Position numbers and translations under genes: made by a program. A stretch of 57,711 nucleotides of DNA from Candidatus Omnitrophota bacterium (GTDB taxonomy: Bacteria; Omnitrophota; Gorgyraeia; Zapsychrales; Fredricksoniimonadaceae): the NCBI GenBank assembly GCA_015233675.1, contig JADFXH010000012.1, forward strand, positions 1 to 57,711, in the 5' to 3' direction. Under the pieces are notes generated by a model. That model worked only from the letters and a program-made list of their open reading frames with translations. It did no database searches and had not been told where the DNA came from. Shown one piece after another: positions 26,934 to 36,003 of the stretch (position 1 is its first letter; each line of letters begins with the position of its first letter).

Positions 26934-27229
26934 AATACGATCTCATTATTCGACCGGAAGCTGAGCAGGATATGCAAGGCGCTTTTGGCTGGTACGAAGA
27001 TCGTGTTTCAGGGCTTGGCCGAGAGTTTCTGCGTTGTGTGGACGCATCTATAGCTCAAATTAACCGTTCTCCCAAAACACATCCAGTCATATATCAGGAT
27101 ATTCGCAGGACATTGACCCGTCGTTTTCCTTTTGGGGTTTTCTATATTGTAGTTGGTCAAAAGATTATTGTGCTTGCTGTCCTTCATGCACGCAGGGATC
27201 CAAGCATGTGGAAAAGAAGGAAGAATTAA
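26930..27229 (+). CDS. ParE/RelE-family toxin
   Basis: IIRPEAEQDM..A..WYE....GLG.EF, RRFPFGVFY, VLAVLHARRDP; ATGA overlap with the antitoxin. Confidence 0.9.
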   Translation: MKYDLIIRPEAEQDMQGAFGWYEDRVSGLGREFLRCVDASIAQINRSPKTHPVIYQDIRRTLTRRFPFGVFYIVVGQKIIVLAVLHARRDPSMWKRRKN

Positions 27230-27279
27230 CAAGCAGTAAGAAGCTCTGTGGACATGAACTCTTGGGACTCAGGCGAGTC

Positions 27280-27314
27280 AAGCCAGTTGCAAAACTCGTC
27301 CAACAGAGCCAACT
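27280..27314. repeat. attR-like end of island B
   Basis: aagccagttgcaaaactcgtccaa plus gagccaact; the minus strand reads LDEFCNWLDSPESQEFMSTELLTAC*. Confidence 0.7.
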
Positions 27315-27330
27315 TTAACAGTTTTATTGG

Positions 27331-27363
27331 GGCTGTCCGTTTTAAAAATGGACAGCCTTTTTT
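27331..27363 (+). terminator. Intrinsic terminator, probably the displaced tRNA-Gln terminator
   Basis: ggctgtcc-gttttaaaaat-ggacagcc-tttttt. Confidence 0.75.
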
Positions 27364-27399
27364 CTTGTTTTTAACCCAAGAGGTCTTTACAATTAATTC

Positions 27400-29112
27400 A
27401 TGGAATTGCTAAAGAAACGCAGTTTTACCTGGGACCTTTTTTACATCGGACTTATCCTCTTTTTTTCTATCCTTATTTCCTTGCCTCTTTTTAAAGGGCA
27501 ATTTATCTGCAGCAGTGATTACGCCGGGACATTGAGAAACCTTTTAGCCATGAAGCAGTGTTTAGGACATGGCCAGTGGGTGGTACGATGGGTGCCTGAC
27601 CTGTATTTTGGGTACGGTTATCCCCTCTTTAATTTTTATCCTCCGTTATTTTATATTCTGGGAGCTATGATAGCGAATATTGGCGCAGGAATAACCATGG
27701 CCTATGATCTTTCTTTATTTATTATTCTTTTTCTTTCGGGCTGTGCGATGTACCTTTTTGCCCGAGAGCTTTGGGGGAAGCAAGGAGGGTTTGTTTCTGC
27801 GACGGCTTATCTTTTTGCCCCTTATCATATGGTGGACCTTTACATGAAGGCGGCTGGCGCTGAAACCATGTCTTTTATTTTTTTGCCTCTTATTTTATGG
27901 TCTTTTTATAAATTACAGCAAACATCTTTGAAGCGTTACATCGTATACTCGGCCTTATCCTGCGCGGGACTTCTTTTGACGCATAATTGCACAAGCATTA
28001 TTTTCTTTCCTTTGGTGCCTTTTTATATTTTATTGCTTTTTTGGCCGTATTCTTCCTGGCAACGATGGATATCTTTGATGCACAGCTTTCTGGTTTTGGC
28101 GCTGGGAGTTGGATTGGCCGCGTTTTTCTGGCTGCCGGCGTTTGTCGAGAAGAAATTTGTGCACGTGGAATTAATGGGGCAAGGCAATTTAAATTTTAAA
28201 GAAAACTTTGTATATTTTAAGGACTTGATCTCACCTGGTTGGGGCAATAATATGCCTTATTTTGGCAGTCCTCATATGGTTAGCCGTATCGGCATTGTGC
28301 ATGGCCTGTTGGTGTTAATCGTGCTGTTGGGTTTTAAGAAAATTGTTGAGCACAACCCGCGGCTAAATAGACAGATTTTTTTCTTCCTTGCGGCCCTGAC
28401 AGGATCAATCTTTCTTACTATTAATTATTCCATGGTTATTTGGGAGCATATCCGTGTTTTACAGTATTTACAGTTTCCTTTCAGGTTTTTGACTGTTGTT
28501 GTACTTGCGGGCAGTGTTATTGCCGGGGGGGTCGTTTTATGGGTACAGCAGGAGCATCGCTTTAAAGTAATGTTTGTTGCGGTTGTATTGATTTTTTTGA
28601 CAAACTTTTCTTATTGCCACCCGAGAGATACCTTTCCCTGCGACTTAAGGCTTGTCAAGACTGACCCGGGCAAATTTCTTTCCGTATTAGTTCCCCAAGA
28701 TGGAGGGGACTATATTCCGATTTGGGTCAAAAACGGGGTCAAGGGATTACCGAGTTCTATGCCATTACAGAAGCTACAATCGTTTTCAAAAGAGGGTCAA
28801 GTTATTGATTCTACAAAAAGATCACCTTTACGCTACAGGTTCATGGTCCAAGCGCAAAAGGTATCGATATTTTGTTTTAATAGTTTTTATTTTCCAGGAT
28901 GGACGGTAAAAGTGGATGGGCACTATGTAGAAGTTTTAACAGACAATCCTTGGGGGTTCATTATTTTTCCATGTCCTCAGGGTGTCCATAACGTGGATAT
29001 CTATTTTGGGACAACCCCGTTACGCCAAATGGCCAAACGCATCACGATAGGTTCCTTGATTCTGCTGGGGCTGGTCTTTATATTTCCGTTTAGAAAATTT
29101 AATACTGGTTGA
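27400..29112 (+). CDS. Polytopic GT-C-type membrane protein (PTPS-related/YfhO-like)
   Basis: GQWVVRWVPDLYFGYGYPLFNFYPPL, AYLFAPYH, LQFPFRFL, YFPGWTVKVDG. Confidence 0.75.
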   Translation: MELLKKRSFTWDLFYIGLILFFSILISLPLFKGQFICSSDYAGTLRNLLAMKQCLGHGQWVVRWVPDLYFGYGYPLFNFYPPLFYILGAMIANIGAGITMAYDLSLFIILFLSGCAMYLFARELWGKQGGFVSATAYLFAPYHMVDLYMKAAGAETMSFIFLPLILWSFYKLQQTSLKRYIVYSALSCAGLLLTHNCTSIIFFPLVPFYILLLFWPYSSWQRWISLMHSFLVLALGVGLAAFFWLPAFVEKKFVHVELMGQGNLNFKENFVYFKDLISPGWGNNMPYFGSPHMVSRIGIVHGLLVLIVLLGFKKIVEHNPRLNRQIFFFLAALTGSIFLTINYSMVIWEHIRVLQYLQFPFRFLTVVVLAGSVIAGGVVLWVQQEHRFKVMFVAVVLIFLTNFSYCHPRDTFPCDLRLVKTDPGKFLSVLVPQDGGDYIPIWVKNGVKGLPSSMPLQKLQSFSKEGQVIDSTKRSPLRYRFMVQAQKVSIFCFNSFYFPGWTVKVDGHYVEVLTDNPWGFIIFPCPQGVHNVDIYFGTTPLRQMAKRITIGSLILLGLVFIFPFRKFNTG

Positions 29113-29126
29113 TTCTTAGCGAGCGT

Positions 29127-29159
29127 CCCTCTCCCTTTCCCTCCCCTTAAGGGGGAGGG
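29127..29159. repeat. REP-like palindrome
   Basis: ccctctcccttt-CCCTCCCC-ttaag-GGGGAGGG. Confidence 0.6.
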
Positions 29160-29203
29160 AATTTTTTCTTAATACAGACCTGTTACGAAAAATAAAAAAA
29201 CAC

Positions 29204-29232
29204 TTGCAATTTATTTGTTTTTATTTTATACT
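29204..29232 (+). promoter_or_regulatory. Sigma70 promoter of the sulfur amino acid operon
   Basis: TTGCAA, 17 nt spacer, TATACT. Confidence 0.7.
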
Positions 29233-29292
29233 ATACTAACTTGATAGATTTAGATGGGAATGCTTTAGAATATTTTTTGAAAGAAGAAAAAA

Positions 29293-29382
29293 ATGAAAAA
29301 AACTTTTAGCGCTATTTATATGATGATGTGTTGCTATATGGCGATGTGCCGCCTTAGCGGCGGGGGAGGTCTTCCTGTGTGA
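29293..29382 (+). CDS. Met/Cys-rich leader peptide MKKTFSAIYMMMCCYMAMCRLSGGGGLPV
   Basis: 5 Met + 3 Cys in codons 10-19; lies between the promoter and a terminator upstream of metY/cysK. Confidence 0.85.
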   Translation: MKKTFSAIYMMMCCYMAMCRLSGGGGLPV

Positions 29383-29413
29383 CGCATCATTTAACAATTA
29401 GGCATGACGGGAC

Positions 29414-29460
29414 AACCCACTGCTAATACAAGGATAATAAAGCAGCGGGTTTTTTGTTTT
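29414..29460 (+). terminator. Attenuator terminator
   Basis: aacccactgct/agcagcgggtt stem followed by tttttgtttt, upstream of the first structural gene. Confidence 0.8.
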
Positions 29461-29478
29461 ATAAATTTGGAGGACAAA

Positions 29479-29670
29479 ATGAGTAAAAAGCAGAACCAAA
29501 AGAATATTGTGAATGATGCCATTATCAAGGATATTGCGGAAGCTGTCGGATCATTAGAATACGGAATAGTCACAATTAAAGTGCATGAAACTAAGATCAT
29601 TCAAATCGACATTACTGAAAAAAAGCGCTTTGATGATGTCTGGCGCATTGAAGGAGGTGGTGGAATATAG
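29479..29670 (+). CDS. YezD/DUF2292-like small protein with an EGGGGI tail
   Basis: GSLEYGIVTIKVHETKIIQIDITEKKRF; GGAGG RBS; ATG at 29479. Confidence 0.8.
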   Translation: MSKKQNQKNIVNDAIIKDIAEAVGSLEYGIVTIKVHETKIIQIDITEKKRFDDVWRIEGGGGI

Positions 29671-29754
29671 ACATCTTATATTAGAGAAGTTTGCTGTAAA
29701 TTGACCGTACAAAACGGCAATGTTAAAAAAATCAATAAAAAATAAAAATCGAAT

Positions 29755-29802
29755 GATTTTACCAGATAACTGGAGAATCCAAGCTAAATCAGGAGGATTC
29801 TT
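29755..29802 (+). promoter_or_regulatory. Overlapping alternative hairpins at the next RBS
   Basis: gattttaccag-ataa-ctggagaatc competes with gagaatcc/ggattctt, which overlaps AGGAGG. Confidence 0.45.
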
Positions 29803-29805
29803 AAA

Positions 29806-30669
29806 ATGAAACACGTAATCAAATTAGCATTAATCGTTTTAGGTGTTATTTTTGCTGGAAATCAGGCTTGGGCAGGACTTCCTTTAAATAACCTGGAAGG
29901 CGTTGGCGGTGTTGCGTTTAATCCGCTGGCGTATCCCGCAGAAGGAGACCCTCTCTATAGTATCGGAGATACCGAGGTCATAAGCAAGCCAAGGTTTGGT
30001 ACATGGTACGCCCGCCTGGAGCAACCAAAGATCGATTGGGGGTCTATTGGGGGTGCCACGACCTTATTTAAGAGATTAGAAGTTTCAGAAGGTTATCAAT
30101 ACATTTCATGGGCGATTCCTGGGAAGGATTTCCATAAGAATAATATTGGGGCCAAACTTGTGTTATTGCCGGAGAATTCTTTTGATACAAAGTTTCTTCC
30201 CGAAATCTCTGTTGGAACGATTTATAAAACAACGAGCGATAAAGTCCTTCGTCAACTGGGATTGCCGACACACGGATCAGGTGAGGATTGGTATGCTGTC
30301 GCGACGAAAACAATCACTCAGCTGCCTTTGCCGGTTGTCCTGTCAGCTGGTGTTCTTTCGTCAGAAGAGGTTGGGACCGGTGTTCTTGGTTTTACAAATG
30401 AAAGAAGAGAAACCGCTTTTGGAAACGTTGATGTTGTTCTGCCGCACAACTTTGCTGTGGGCTATGAATTCAAACAAGGAGAAGAATACAATAATACAAC
30501 ACCAATACATGGAAATGCCAATTATTGGGATGTGCATGTGGCATGGCTGGCGAATAAGAACCTTACTCTTGTTTTGGCCTATACCGATACGGGAAGGTAC
30601 AATCTTGCCCATAATACAAAGTATGGATTGGGAAGCGGGCCTGTTTTAAGCGCGCAATATGCGTTTTAA
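29806..30669 (+). CDS. Outer-membrane beta-barrel protein (DUF3034-like)
   Basis: Signal peptide ...AWA, LEGVGGVAFNPLAY, alternating strands, C-terminal YAF. Confidence 0.6.
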   Translation: MKHVIKLALIVLGVIFAGNQAWAGLPLNNLEGVGGVAFNPLAYPAEGDPLYSIGDTEVISKPRFGTWYARLEQPKIDWGSIGGATTLFKRLEVSEGYQYISWAIPGKDFHKNNIGAKLVLLPENSFDTKFLPEISVGTIYKTTSDKVLRQLGLPTHGSGEDWYAVATKTITQLPLPVVLSAGVLSSEEVGTGVLGFTNERRETAFGNVDVVLPHNFAVGYEFKQGEEYNNTTPIHGNANYWDVHVAWLANKNLTLVLAYTDTGRYNLAHNTKYGLGSGPVLSAQYAF

Positions 30670-30675
30670 AGAATT

Positions 30676-30716
30676 CCCCCTGCCCCTCTCTTTTTTATAA
30701 TGAGAGGGGCAGGGGG
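30676..30716. repeat. Perfect 15-bp inverted repeat inside the operon
   Basis: ccccctgcccctctc-11 nt-gagaggggcaggggg; no U tract after the stem. Confidence 0.8.
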
Positions 30717-30721
30717 CGTAA

Positions 30722-32059
<1,338 letters not shown>

Positions 32060-32068
32060 GAGGGGTTT

Positions 32069-33004
32069 ATGGCAAAAATATTTATAGACATCACTAAAAC
32101 CATTGGCAACACGCCGTTAGTACGGCTAAATCGCATCACCGAAGGCAGTGAGGCAGAGGTGCTGGTAAAACTGGAATCCTTTAATCCGCTTTCAAGCGTT
32201 AAGGACAGGCTCGGAATTGCGCTTATTGAAGATGCTGAAAAAAAAGGACTTCTTAAAAAAGACACAGTCATTATCGAGCCTACCAGCGGCAATACGGGAA
32301 TTGCCTTGGCTTTTATTGCTGCGGCTAAAGGCTACAAATTGATCCTTACTATGCCGGACACCATGAGTCTTGAGCGCAGGCAATTACTTAAGATTTTTGG
32401 AGCTGAGTTGGTCTTGACTGAAGGGTCAAAAGGCATGAAAGGTGCTATTGAAAAAGCCGAGGAACTCGCTCGCAGCACACCTAACAGCTTTGTCCCGCAG
32501 CAATTTAATAACCCTGCTAATCCTGAAATTCACCGCAAGACTACGGCTGAGGAAATTTGGAATGATACTGATGGTAAAGTTGACATCCTGATTTCCGGCA
32601 TAGGAACGGGAGGTACTATTACAGGTGTGGCCGAAGTCATAAAAAAAAGAAAGAAAAGTTTTAAGGCAATTGCCGTCGAGCCTGATGCTTCTCCGGTTTT
32701 GTCCGGGGGTGTTCCCGGGCCGCATAAGATCCAGGGCATAGGTGCCGGGTTCGTGCCCAAGGTTTTAAATCGTGATATCATCGATGAGGTTATCCGCGTT
32801 ACCAATGAAAATGCCGGAGAAACTGCACGTCGTGCCGCTCGTTTGGAAGGCATTCTTGTTGGGATTTCAAGCGGAGCTGCTTTGTGGGCAGGACTCGAGG
32901 TTGCTAAACGCAAAGAAAATAAAGGGAAAACCATTGTTGTGGTATTGCCGGATACCGGCGAACGGTATCTGTCAACATGGCTTTTCCAAGAAGTTAAGGC
33001 ATGA
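32069..33004 (+). CDS. cysK: Cysteine synthase A
   Basis: [52 protein letters not shown]. Confidence 0.96.
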
Positions 33005-33044
33005 CGAGCGGATACTCTTTGAGCTTGATGAAGGGTAATTAATT

Positions 33045-33308
33045 ATGGAAAATAAAAAGTTACGTATTTATTGCCCGAATGGACTTCATTTACGAGAAGC
33101 GGCCCGCGTTGTTACGGCTGCAAGAAAATTTATTTCTAAGATCCAGATTTGGCATAATTCTACCAAAGCCGATACGCATTCAATCCTCGAGGTGTTATTG
33201 TTGGGGGCCCCTCAAAATTCAGAAATCACATTGGTGATAGAAGGGGCGGACGAAAAAGAGGCAATGAATGAATTAATGCAGATATTTCAGGATGGGGGAG
33301 GGATTTAA
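33045..33308 (+). CDS. HPr-like phosphocarrier protein with a C-terminal FQDGGGI tail
   Basis: CPNGLHLREA (His15 equivalent), HSILEVLLLG (Ser46 equivalent), GADEKEAM. Confidence 0.85.
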   Translation: MENKKLRIYCPNGLHLREAARVVTAARKFISKIQIWHNSTKADTHSILEVLLLGAPQNSEITLVIEGADEKEAMNELMQIFQDGGGI

Positions 33309-33745
33309 ATAGAATACGTTGGTGCTTTTTTAACTGATTCAACCTGATCTGCCAGATCAGCGAAAGTGATATGATCTACAACATCGGAAGTTAATTTAAA
33401 CACCTTTTGCCAAATTGGCCGGAATGCGCATTTGTATAAGTCTCCGCAAGCGGTGTATTTTTTGTTGACGCAGGCAATAGGTTCGAGCGGACCATCGACA
33501 AATCGTACAACTTCTCCTAAAGTTATATTTTGGGGCGGCCTGGAAAGTAAATAGCCGCCAACCTTGCCTCGGCGGCTTTCAATAAAACCGCCTTTTTTGA
33601 GTTCTAATAAAATTTGTTCGAGAAATTTAGTAGGAGCATCAATGCGACTTGCAATTGCAGGAATGGTAACTAATCCTTCGTGATAGTGAAGCGCTAAATC
33701 TAGAATTGCTTTTAACGCGTAGTCGCCTTTATGAGTAATTTTCAT
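33305..33745 (-). CDS. Rrf2-family regulator (IscR/CymR-like)
   Basis: KGDYALKAILDLA, FLEQILLELKKGG, SRRGKVGGYLL, three Cys, ends PTYSI. Confidence 0.92.
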   Translation of the reverse strand: MKITHKGDYALKAILDLALHYHEGLVTIPAIASRIDAPTKFLEQILLELKKGGFIESRRGKVGGYLLSRPPQNITLGEVVRFVDGPLEPIACVNKKYTACGDLYKCAFRPIWQKVFKLTSDVVDHITFADLADQVESVKKAPTYSI

Positions 33746-33777
33746 ATATTATCCTATAATCTCCATTGACATAATGT

Positions 33778-33805
33778 AGTATAAAATATTTTTTGTTTTA
33801 GTCAA
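33778..33805 (-). promoter_or_regulatory. Sigma70 promoter for the Rrf2 gene
   Basis: Minus strand TTGACT, 16 nt spacer, TATACT. Confidence 0.6.
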
Positions 33806-33853
33806 GGCAGTATTTTTAATTTGCTTTTTTAAAAAATATGTGTTAAGCTTTTA

Positions 33854-33869
33854 ATGTAAAGCTTTACAT
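33854..33869. promoter_or_regulatory. Palindromic operator 1 (LacI-like)
   Basis: ATGTAAAGCTTTACAT, perfect 16 bp, just downstream of TTGCTT-17-TAAGCT (33821-33849). Confidence 0.75.
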
Positions 33870-33913
33870 AATAAAAAGAGTCAGTGATTTTTAGGGGGTA
33901 TTTTTTTATTAAG

Positions 33914-33935
33914 TTTATGTAAAGCTTTACATAAA
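33914..33935. promoter_or_regulatory. Palindromic operator 2 (LacI-like)
   Basis: TTTATGTAAAGCTTTACATAAA, perfect 22 bp; same core as operator 1. Confidence 0.75.
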
Positions 33936-33953
33936 TAACAAAGAGAGGACTTT

Positions 33954-35975
33954 ATGGCCAAAAATACTGCTTTGAATGCCGGTCAAAAGATCTTAAACCT
34001 TTTAGTTTTTATCTTCTTTGCAGTTTTTTGTTTGATAATTCCTTCCCTATTAAAAGCTCAAGAAAAAGATAATCCGAATGTTGAAAATTTTTGGAAAAAT
34101 TATTTTCAAGGCAATCTTTTGCCTAAACAGGCATTCAAATTGAACAATCCGGGGCAATCCGTTTTTATGGAGTATAGCAAATATGGTGAATTTCATAATT
34201 TAGGAGAAGCCAATTACCGGTATGCAATTAAGGACAAGGCGGCTTTACAGGAAGCTATAGGAGAGGGGATTTATCCTAATATGGATGTTTTTAAAGATCC
34301 GCAATACCGCAAATTGAATAAACAGGGACTGCTTGACGGGAATCCCTGGGAATATGTGCATTCAAAAGATTTTGAAAAGGCCTTTTATATATGGACTCAG
34401 GCTCAAGAGGATCCGGGGGTCAGAACGTTTTATACGGGCAAGGTTTTGGAAAATGCCGGCCTTATTACGCAGGCAATTAAGTCTTATTATGCGGCGATTG
34501 TTTATTTTCCGCACTCGGCCGCCTGGGCCGCTGACCATTCTTTTGTCTGGTATATTGCGCCGACGGCCATCAGTTCAATTCAGCGTTTGTGCAGGGATTA
34601 TCCTGAGCTTAGCTGTGAACTTAAGGGAGCTTCATTTGAGGTTCAAAAGGGGCTGGCTGTAGATTTAAGTCAGGACATCATTAAAGTTAACCCGGGAAAA
34701 ATAATTCGTAAAACTATCCAGGAAAAAATTAATGAAATGCCTAAGCTGGGTTCTTTAAAAATAGCGGAAACCAGGGGAAATGGTTTGGTCAGGATGATTA
34801 AATTTGCTAATGGCGAATGGCAAATGTTGGTTGAGGGAAAACCATATTTTATCAAAGGCATAACCTATGCGCCTACTGAAGTTGGGCTAGGCCCCAGCAA
34901 GGATTTCAATTTTGATGCCAGATGGATGTCCTCTGACAAAAATAAAAATGGGACCATTGATGCTCCCTATGAGGCATGGGTGGACGATAAGGGGCAAGGC
35001 GGCCAACACAAACCTATTGGTGATTTTGAGTTACTCAAAGAGATGGGGATCAATACTATCCGTATTTACGCGCCTAATAATCCCATTAGTAAATATGATC
35101 CAACCCTGGTTAATAAACCGCTTTTGCGTGATTTGTATAAAAAATTTGGCATTAAAGTGATCATCGGAGATCCGTTAGGCGCTTATACTTTGGGTTCGGG
35201 AGCCTCCTGGGAAAAAGGAACAGATTATACCGATCCCCTGCAACTGGCAAAGATGAAGGAAGTCGTAAGGGCAAAGGTCATGGACCTCAAGGATGAGCCG
35301 TTTGTACTTATGTGGGTTATAGGTAATGAAAATAATCTGCCTCCTAAATACTTAGGAGTTAATGCGAGCAGGACCAATGCGGCCTCACATCCTGAAGCAT
35401 ACGCCAGATTTATCAATGAGATTGCGCAAATGATTCACGAAATTGACGGCAACCATCCTGTTGCTGTCGGGAACCTTGAATTAGGCCTCATAGATTATTA
35501 TAAACAATATGCGCCTGCCATTGACATATTAGGGGTCAACTCTTATCGGGGAGAAGAAGGGTTCGGGGCTCTTTTTATTGATGTTAAAAAAGAGCTGGAT
35601 AAGCCTGTTTTAATAACGGAATACGGTTGTGATGCTTATACGCAGGCGCAAGGGCCGGATGAAGACAGGCAGTTAAAATATCTTCAGGGAAATCTCCATG
35701 ACATTATTTATAATATGCCGGGAGGTCCCGGCGTTGGCAATACCATCGGAGGGGTTGTTTTTGAATACCTGGATGAATGGTGGAAGGCGCCTAATGATCC
35801 CGAAGACCATCAATCAATCGCCTATCAACAAATGGGACAGTCGCCCGACGGATATATTCATGAAGAATGGTTTGGGATTGCAGGTCAGGGCAACGGCAAG
35901 AATTCACCTTTTGAAAGGCATTTGCGCAAGTCGTATTATTATTTGAAAAATATTTTAAACAGTATACCTGAATAA
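33954..35975 (+). CDS. Secreted clan GH-A (GH2-like TIM barrel) glycoside hydrolase with an N-terminal helical module
   Basis: YFIKGITYAP, MGINTIRIY, WVIGNENN (acid/base), KPVLITEYGCD (nucleophile), FEYLDEWWK. Confidence 0.75.
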   Translation: MAKNTALNAGQKILNLLVFIFFAVFCLIIPSLLKAQEKDNPNVENFWKNYFQGNLLPKQAFKLNNPGQSVFMEYSKYGEFHNLGEANYRYAIKDKAALQEAIGEGIYPNMDVFKDPQYRKLNKQGLLDGNPWEYVHSKDFEKAFYIWTQAQEDPGVRTFYTGKVLENAGLITQAIKSYYAAIVYFPHSAAWAADHSFVWYIAPTAISSIQRLCRDYPELSCELKGASFEVQKGLAVDLSQDIIKVNPGKIIRKTIQEKINEMPKLGSLKIAETRGNGLVRMIKFANGEWQMLVEGKPYFIKGITYAPTEVGLGPSKDFNFDARWMSSDKNKNGTIDAPYEAWVDDKGQGGQHKPIGDFELLKEMGINTIRIYAPNNPISKYDPTLVNKPLLRDLYKKFGIKVIIGDPLGAYTLGSGASWEKGTDYTDPLQLAKMKEVVRAKVMDLKDEPFVLMWVIGNENNLPPKYLGVNASRTNAASHPEAYARFINEIAQMIHEIDGNHPVAVGNLELGLIDYYKQYAPAIDILGVNSYRGEEGFGALFIDVKKELDKPVLITEYGCDAYTQAQGPDEDRQLKYLQGNLHDIIYNMPGGPGVGNTIGGVVFEYLDEWWKAPNDPEDHQSIAYQQMGQSPDGYIHEEWFGIAGQGNGKNSPFERHLRKSYYYLKNILNSIPE

Positions 35976-36003
35976 AATACCAACAACCATAAGGGGGTAA
36001 GAT

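Follow-up and report, generated by a model that had tools for sequence, protein, structure and literature searches.

The stretch of DNA analysed here, 57,711 nucleotides of contig JADFXH010000012.1 from a Candidatus Omnitrophota metagenome-assembled genome (MAG; 2.1 Mb, 65% complete) and referred to below as the window, carries a sulfur-assimilation operon whose last gene, directly downstream of the cysteine synthase gene cysK, encodes a small protein of the HPr family that ends in ...DGGGI. It is almost certain that this protein belongs to a real and conserved HPr subfamily that is specific to sulfur regulons and defined by an invariant terminal G-x-G-I, and the best explanation of the window gene is that it encodes a second, specialised HPr that serves the sulfur-assimilation regulon and not sugar transport. 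While the HPr fold and the docking of CysE-type tails are already known, the combination of the two, the fact that it is restricted to sulfur loci, in Omnitrophota and Fibrobacterota at the least, and the larger group of small proteins bearing the same tail are new with respect to the searchable literature, in which we found nothing that links an HPr-like protein or DUF2292 to cysteine synthase/CysK.

An HPr paralog directly downstream of cysK

The open reading frame (ORF) translates into MENKKLRIYCPNGLHLREAARVVTAARKFISKIQIWHNSTKADTHSILEVLLLGAPQNSEITLVIEGADEKEAMNELMQIFQDGGGI and starts 40 nt after the cysK stop codon, with no terminator-like site in between. At the profile level the protein scores above both curated cut-offs for the HPr family, with 76.1 bits against a cut-off of 23 for PF00381 (Pfam, E 2e-21) and 73.6 bits against 47.9 for TIGR01003. 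It falls below the cut-offs of all equivalog models for the general HPr, NPr and fused phosphotransferase system (PTS) proteins, with a best score of 57 versus 110 and only 29 bits versus 119 for NPr, and these scores, together with the sulfur context described below, place it outside the general PTS HPr, NPr and Crh groups. Crh proteins are devoid of His15, while the tailed HPr keeps this residue and is, for that reason, not Crh-like.

An AlphaFold2 (AF2) model, computed from an alignment of 38 subfamily sequences, has a mean predicted local distance difference test score (pLDDT) of 91.4 and displays the classical HPr topology, an open-faced β-sandwich of the β-α-β-β-α-β-α type, with strands at residues 2-7, 32-37, 40-43 and 60-66 and helices at 16-26, 47-52 and 70-82. 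The best 30 matches of a Foldseek search of this model against the PDB are all HPrs, with template modelling (TM) scores of 0.85-0.93 and root mean square deviations of about 1 Å. Thus, the HPr-fold protein that a preliminary description of the window, made from the letters alone, had placed directly after cysK is recovered by profile, by predicted structure and by the short intergenic distance, and the equivalents of His15 (in the motif GLHLRE) and Ser46 (in HSIL) that it had named are both in the sequence; Arg17 is also kept, and Glu stands in place of Pro18.

The tail FQDGGGI of the preliminary description was likewise correctly read, as the chain terminates in D83-G-G-G-I87 and is then followed by the stop codon, which provides the isoleucine with a free carboxylate that is expected of a CysK client. 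Residues 85-87 (pLDDT <50) form the sole low-confidence segment of the model and helix 3 stops at residue 82, leaving a predicted flexible and exposed tail of the length expected of such a client (at least 4-5 residues).

Conservation of the tail

Homologs were collected exhaustively by profile among 1.84 billion cluster representatives and once more by way of a word index, which resulted in 111 HPr-family proteins ending in G-x-G-I and 126 of comparable length without such an end. Eight metagenomic homologs with 63-87% identity all end in FQDG[GA]GI, and every one of the 111 tailed proteins, at identities of 31-87%, stops exactly at the isoleucine; in the other set only one of the 126 has a terminal isoleucine, and the commonest last residue is glutamate. 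The tail begins with aspartate (79 of the 111) or asparagine (13), followed by glycine, a small residue (alanine in 70, glycine in 25 and serine in 11), glycine and isoleucine, and lies at a nearly constant distance from the active site, with 72 residues between His15 and the end in 96 of the 111 sequences, compared to 50-115 in other HPrs. Across 38 tailed members with 34-87% identity, no residue other than G13, H15, S46, L53, G67, G84, G86 and I87 is invariant, R17 being kept in at least 90%; G84, G86 and I87 are invariant in all 111 too. Position 18, on the other hand, is variable (V in 51, P in 36, E in 9 and I in 9), so that the non-canonical exchange of proline for glutamate highlighted in the preliminary description does exist at this site but is confined, within the tailed subfamily, to the Omnitrophota clade and is no trait of the subfamily.

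On a tree computed without the C-terminal tail columns, the tail trait requires 5 changes, as compared to a mean of 79 with shuffled labels, and 102 of the tailed sequences fall inside one clade of 106, so that we are dealing with a largely coherent subfamily and not with scattered convergence. In 15 of the 126 ordinary HPrs, the equivalent position is occupied by G-[F/L]-G-E, and for this reason the tail seems to be a remodelled ancestral HPr end in which what is truly new is a small x and a last isoleucine that the stop codon follows directly. The preliminary description had set out beforehand that HPr homologs linked to cysK should keep G-x-G-I ends and other HPrs should not. This was borne out by 111 of 111 tailed proteins, by 125 of 126 others that are without it, and by the sulfur loci in which all 20 contexts lie, so that docking withstood the refutation set for it there, a tail that varies among cysK-linked homologs.

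Genomic contexts

We inspected 20 loci with a tailed HPr: the window, its close relatives (L003/L004, L007 and L008-L010), seven distant members (L012-L018), seven further Omnitrophota genomes (L053-L059), and a second tailed copy in a Chitinispirillaceae MAG (L065). Every one of the 20 is a locus of sulfur assimilation and none contains PTS genes. The neighbours include metY or another Cys/Met pyridoxal phosphate (PLP) enzyme, cysK, PALP+CBS proteins, Rrf2 regulators and rhodanese, as well as the YezD/DUF2292-DUF3034 pair, the sulfate ABC transporter cysPTWA, serine acetyltransferase (SAT) and ThiF/MoeZ. The seven PALP-family neighbours of about 310 residues that we tested (the window and six others) are all cysteine synthases of type A, with 461-481 bits against the TIGR01139 cut-off of 351, and remain below the CysM cut-offs, so that the enzyme encoded beside the tailed HPr in these genomes is the CysK isoform.

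The tailed paralog is always an additional copy. In a sample of 401 Omnitrophota genomes, 393 have an HPr but only eight have the tailed form, each time besides a canonical one, and the two are separated by a clear gap in profile score (the tailed proteins score >100 bits and align up to the final column, versus ≤87 bits). In these eight carriers, all of which encode CysK, the paralog always lies beside metY, Rrf2, DUF2292, cysK or the 74-residue protein described below. The canonical HPrs of carrier genomes have acidic ends and either adjoin ptsI or yvcK or belong to an rpoN-hpf operon. This is illustrated by the Chitinispirillaceae MAG, which has two tailed HPrs, each after cysK-metY, and a canonical one in the rpoN-hpf operon, and by the genome of the window, where the canonical HPr (GLHARPAA ... 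EEEIVS) is encoded on contig C11 directly 5' of ptsI.

Some of these loci have further uncommon constituents. In L014 (495-9392), the tailed HPr, which is of the GLHLTP type with Arg17 replaced by Thr, lies within a nitrogenase-like cluster with six Oxidored_nitro genes, a NifH-like ATPase, a radical SAM protein and an NMT1-type binding protein, with ThiF-rhodanese and a SAT that ends in FENGSGI nearby; this cluster may be an organosulfur-salvage reductase system. In several Omnitrophota, the gene directly 5' of the tailed HPr encodes a protein of 1400-1750 residues (L003 491-5728; also L008-L010, L055 and L056) with an N-terminal signal-like segment and, in L003, embedded SATase_N and Hexapep domains (residues 640-860) and a Cys/Met PLP-enzyme domain (943-1282); as its SAT C-terminus is internal, it cannot form a free docking tail. 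Finally, a Met/Cys-rich protein of 159-181 residues with no family match (with segments such as MMMNGMTMM and CCGCCSCCK) adjoins the sulfur genes in L007 (2439-2918) and L003 (7153-7698) and may serve to store sulfur or to bind metal; a search of the genome of the window, at 65% completeness, did not yield it.

The same tail on other proteins of sulfur loci

Tailed HPrs are not the only proteins of these loci that end in this way. The YezD/DUF2292 protein, encoded by the first gene of the window operon and weakly matching the model of the sulfur-starvation protein OscA, ends in G-x-G-I in 115 of its 120 homologs (65-100% identity), with examples in L007 (EHGGGI), L015 (ADGGGI) and L058 (ENGAGI), while one copy in L012 is tail-less. 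These sequences suggest that this family, to which no function has been assigned, may dock into CysK. A second family, of 74-80 residues and with no Pfam or NCBIfam match, ends in FDLG[DS]GI or TFGDGI, which is the E. coli type of CysE tail, and always adjoins a tailed HPr and/or an Rrf2 gene; as with the Met/Cys-rich protein, a search of the genome of the window, 65% complete, did not find it.

The Rrf2 regulators of the window and of L054, L056-L059, L012 and L065 end in PTYSI, LTYSI, VFYSI, LAYSI, LSYAI, DWVI and DYVI, with one ending in TGGGGI. Those next to the related loci follow a [TFAS]-Y-[SA]-I pattern, with CymR as the best, although sub-cut-off, equivalog (90 bits, below cut-off, for the window protein). 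Such ends are consistent with a CymR-like docking of these regulators to CysK. The end FENGSGI of a serine acetyltransferase is identical to the last seven residues of an HPr paralog, P0190, from a different organism, and in L018 (3213-5837) three consecutive genes directly 5' of cysK encode the sulfate ABC transporter ATPase CysA (...CEYEI), a tailed HPr (...DGAGI) and a DUF2061 protein (...IDYEI).

In the genome of the window as a whole, the GGGI end is rare, with three cases in 9080 ORFs (stop-to-stop, at least 60 residues), two of which flank cysK within 4 kb. The third is on the minus strand of contig C31 and encodes a type IV pilin/pseudopilin-like protein of 206 residues, with GFTFTE at the N-terminus, that is probably unrelated to sulfur loci.

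A putative CysK-docking module

CysK is a moonlighting sensor with a handful of clients, namely CysE, CymR, CdiA-CT and nematode EGL-9. The terminal isoleucine of CysE anchors the cysteine synthase complex and, in H. influenzae, contributes about 80% of the energy of the interaction; YGDGI, the native pentapeptide of Salmonella CysE, has a Kd of 11.8 µM for CysK and binds CysM about 400 times worse, and CysE of M. tuberculosis ends in DFSI (PMC9547175). CymR's C-terminal pentapeptide, the minimal binder derived from this protein, is enough to bind S. aureus CysK in the nanomolar range (bioRxiv 10.1101/2024.09.19.614015), and the terminal isoleucine of CdiA-CT is essential for CysK binding (PMC4961446).

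Given these precedents, we consider docking of the HPr-paralog tail into CysK the best-supported mechanism, and a reasonably probable one, because the same tail is found on SAT, Rrf2 and YezD proteins of sulfur loci and because the Salmonella CysE tail YGDGI binds CysK. The reading of the preliminary description, a PTS-phosphorylatable inhibitor or adaptor of CysK, is partly supported by these findings. The most economical reading would be that of a module for docking into CysK that was either grafted onto the C-terminus of an HPr or arose from it. With the HPr domain intact (His15, Arg17 and Ser46), the five unstructured residues D-G-[G/A/S]-G-I after helix 3 would enter the active-site cleft of CysK, where the carboxylate of the terminal isoleucine would occupy the subsite for the substrate α-carboxylate, as the tails of CysE, CymR and CdiA-CT do. 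As the tail would thereby take the O-acetylserine site, binding should block CysK and O-acetylserine should release it. The paralog would compete with the other putative tail clients of the same genome, CysE (...DFYI), Rrf2 (...TYSI) and YezD/DUF2292 (...GGGGI). Phosphorylation of His15 by Enzyme I from phosphoenolpyruvate (PEP) could either modulate the interaction or be its output, and PEP:pyruvate status, i.e., carbon and energy, would be joined to O-acetylserine/sulfide status, i.e., sulfur. The result may be a tuning of CysK and, with MetY, of the split between cysteine and homocysteine, or the sequestration and release of the HPr paralog by CysK.

Phosphorylation of His15 is plausible since His15 and Arg17 are strongly constrained and Enzyme I is present in the genome, in three paralogs: ptsI beside the canonical HPr (C11:27815-29449), a GAF-EI, PtsP-like protein (C2:61452-62921), and a copy of about 590 residues (C26:140477-142246). 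We considered the latter as a dedicated kinase of the tailed HPr and rejected it, as its only ortholog (65% identity; 25 relatives) is in genome G336, which is free of the paralog. Phosphorylation of Ser46 is unlikely in Omnitrophota because HprK was found in none of the eight carrier genomes, where only sub-threshold matches to HprK/P were obtained, in the genome of the window as well as in the seven others. Ser46 is conserved also in the HPrs of organisms without HprK, and its invariance therefore says little.

A close parallel is the CysE-CysK complex, with which the tailed HPr shares a free terminal isoleucine after a flexible G-x-G, a gene encoded with a type-A cysK, and a tail that is invariant in the family; the CysE tails themselves vary between ...YGDGI in E. 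coli and Salmonella, ...MNLNI in H. influenzae and ...DFSI in M. tuberculosis. However, CysE is a hexameric acetyltransferase, whereas here an 87-residue, monomeric HPr fold protrudes by about five residues and has no evident coupling to O-acetylserine production. In B. subtilis and S. aureus, CymR is, similarly to the tailed HPr, a non-enzymatic protein that docks by a C-terminal pentapeptide ending in isoleucine, which makes CysK a sensor of O-acetylserine, and Ile-tailed Rrf2 genes adjoin the HPr paralog here; but the paralog has a phosphocarrier fold and is without a DNA-binding domain. CdiA-CT(EC536) provides a case in which an unrelated family has acquired a CysE-like tail whose terminal isoleucine is essential, from which it follows that tail mimicry evolves readily, although CdiA-CT is an interbacterial toxin that uses CysK as a permissive factor and the HPr paralog is a protein of a housekeeping regulon. 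As second copies of an HPr fold that regulate a non-PTS target, Crh, NPr/PtsO and the moonlighting HPrs acting on glycogen phosphorylase, Rsd and CcpA are comparable, but the HPr interactions that we know of use the His15/Ser46 face and none the C-terminus. The carriers of the CysO-CysM and HcyS-MetY systems, in turn, are small proteins that insert a Gly-rich C-terminus into the active site of the sulfhydrylase of an adjacent gene, yet they have a β-grasp fold, terminal G-G and ThiF/JAMM partners, none of which is found in the tailed HPr.

Several observations weigh against docking into CysK. The protrusion beyond helix 3 is only five residues long, the minimum known to bind, which would require the HPr body to rest on the entrance of the CysK cleft. 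When an aromatic residue at -2/-3 is missing, Gly-rich tails bind weakly as free peptides: Salmonella CysK binds MNDGI with 306 µM and YGDGI with 11.8 µM. CysE (DFYI) and Rrf2 (TYSI) of the source genome belong to another class of tails, [FY]-x-I. The occurrence of CysK in all carriers is uninformative because 370 of the 401 genomes sampled from the phylum have it. Only 10 of the 20 loci contain a type-A cysK at a distance of up to about 8 kb, and we found no dedicated kinase that co-varies with the tailed HPr.

The commonest immediate neighbour of the tailed HPr is metY and not cysK, and MetY is, as the more constant neighbour, a serious alternative target. The tail could dock into another protein of the sulfur regulon, MetY being likeliest and Rrf2 a further candidate, and would then control homocysteine synthesis or transcription directly. 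In most loci metY is immediately 5' of the tailed HPr or within one gene of it (L013, L016, L017, L053, L054, L056, L057 and L065), while several have no type-A cysK within 8 kb (L012, L008 and L014). The active sites of MetY and CysM are able to take up the C-terminus of a protein, as seen for HcyS-COSH in Wolinella and CysO-COSH in M. tuberculosis; however, docking by a terminal isoleucine is, to our knowledge, not described for MetY and is defining for the partners of CysK. As CysE- and CymR-type proteins of these loci bear the same tail and all carrier genomes encode CysK, we judge a target other than CysK to be rather unlikely.

Less likely still, and in our view improbable, is that we are dealing with an ordinary HPr phosphocarrier that lies in a sulfur operon by chance and whose end is a lineage variant of G-[F/L]-G-E without a docking function. 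The retention of His15 and Ser46, the presence of Enzyme I and the ...G[FL]GE ends of 15 of the 126 other HPrs would all be in line with it, but it does not account for an isoleucine and an exact chain end that are invariant in 111 sequences at 31-87% identity, nor for the canonical HPr that is always present as well or a context that is sulfur in 20 of 20 cases and PTS in none.

Two further readings have, in our estimate, a very small chance of being correct. According to the first, the Gly-rich end is the pro-form of a sulfur carrier that is clipped, adenylated by a ThiF-type E1 and thiocarboxylated to deliver sulfide to MetY or CysK, as in HcyS and CysO. MetY and enzymes of the CysK family are known acceptors of sulfur carriers, some carriers are made with extra residues past GG, and ThiF/MoeB-like genes are found in three of the 20 loci (L007, L014 and L065); but the window operon has no ThiF or JAMM gene, the same tail occurs on a transcription factor and a SAT, and we rejected this reading for the fold, which according to Foldseek is that of HPr and not β-grasp, and for the residue x, which is alanine in 70 of the 111 sequences, so that removal of the isoleucine would leave A-G instead of G-G. 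The second, a degradation or localisation signal of sulfur-starvation proteins formed by a hydrophobic C-terminus after a Gly linker, would explain the recurrence of the tail on several small regulon proteins that are unrelated to each other, but we know of no bacterial degron of this form, and the motif agrees with the tail that experiments have defined as CysK-binding, also on CysE itself.

Docking into CysK could also be part of a broader scheme, which we put forward only tentatively and hold to be rather doubtful as a whole: CysK as the hub of a 'terminal-isoleucine code' of the sulfur regulon, with the HPr paralog as the channel of the PTS relay to sulfur assimilation, and at least five unrelated families (tailed HPr, YezD/DUF2292 including the OscA family, the 74-80-residue family, Rrf2/CymR-like regulators and SAT) competing for the CysK active site and being released together as O-acetylserine rises. 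CysA, the ATPase of the sulfate pump, and DUF2061 may be further members.

Features of the window

The operon of the window comprises five co-oriented genes, in the order YezD/DUF2292, DUF3034, metY, cysK and HPr paralog (Table 1). The pair of the first two is found again in L007, L012 and L059, and the DUF3034 protein is probably an outer-membrane protein. The window CysK has an intact TSGNTG Asn-loop and QQF motif and matches M. tuberculosis CysK1 (2q3b) with an E-value of 2e-134, the sister entry of which, 2q3c, contains the CysE peptide DFSI. That the operon is without cysE, as the preliminary description had stated, was confirmed; a cysE with the C-terminus DIDFYI lies on contig C11, and a second cysK is also found elsewhere in the genome. 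The HPr paralog and the Rrf2 gene are convergent and overlap by 4 nt, with both of their Ile-stop ends lying, on opposite strands, within the palindrome ATTTAAAT (33303-33310). An Rfam scan of positions 27000-36000 yielded no riboswitch. A palindromic hairpin between DUF3034 and metY (30658-30729), with a sub-threshold Rfam match on both strands, may be an internal attenuator or terminator.

Table 1. Coordinates of the features in the sulfur region of the window and of members of the 74-80-residue family in related loci.
Feature	Position	Strand	Evidence or remark
Strong terminator upstream of the sulfur operon	29137-29161		
Candidate sigma-70-like promoter of the sulfur operon, TTGCAA-17-TATACT	29204..29232	+	consensus scan only, not evidence of function
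YezD/DUF2292 small protein, 63 aa, C-terminus EGGGGI, operon gene 1	29479..29670	+	PF10055 E 3.5e-12
DUF3034 protein, signal peptide, terminal ...YAF	29806..30669	+	PF11231 E 1.3e-20
metY, O-acetylhomoserine sulfhydrylase / homocysteine synthase, 430 aa	30767..32059	+	TIGR01326 680 bits, above cut-off
cysK, cysteine synthase A, 311 aa	32069..33004	+	TIGR01139 480.6 bits vs cut-off 351
Tailed HPr paralog, 87 aa + stop	33045..33308	+	ORF, profile, AF2 + Foldseek
His15 codon of the tailed HPr paralog	33087-33089	+	sequence
Ser46 codon of the tailed HPr paralog	33180-33182	+	sequence
C-terminal pentapeptide codons D83-G-G-G-I87, proposed CysK-docking tail	33291..33305	+	disordered in model
Rrf2-family (CymR/IscR-like) regulator, 146 aa, convergent, ends PTYSI	33305..33745	-	PF02082 E 6e-37
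Promoter-like site of the Rrf2 gene, TTGACT-16-TATACT, 10/12	33778..33805	-	consensus scan
74-80-aa family member	L007 1885-2109	-	
74-80-aa family member	L003 6261-6485	-	
74-80-aa family member	L015 8620-8862	+	
74-80-aa family member	L055 3-170		
74-80-aa family member	L056 15635-15859		

Implications

HPr and its paralogs couple carbon status to catabolite control and to nitrogen, potassium and glycogen metabolism, and we know of no described link from HPr to sulfur assimilation. The occurrence of a tailed HPr subfamily in sulfur loci points, at the level of sequence, to an undescribed link between carbon/energy signalling and the synthesis of cysteine and methionine. If the docking is true, PEP:pyruvate status would be a new regulatory input to both pathways, the small 'hypothetical' proteins of sulfur operons, including YezD/DUF2292 and the 74-aa family, would gain a testable function, and mimicry of the CysE tail would represent a general evolutionary route by which proteins are wired into sulfur sensing. 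Should the more tentative hub scheme also hold, the PTS would be linked to sulfur in a way comparable to its link, through PTS-Ntr, to nitrogen and potassium.

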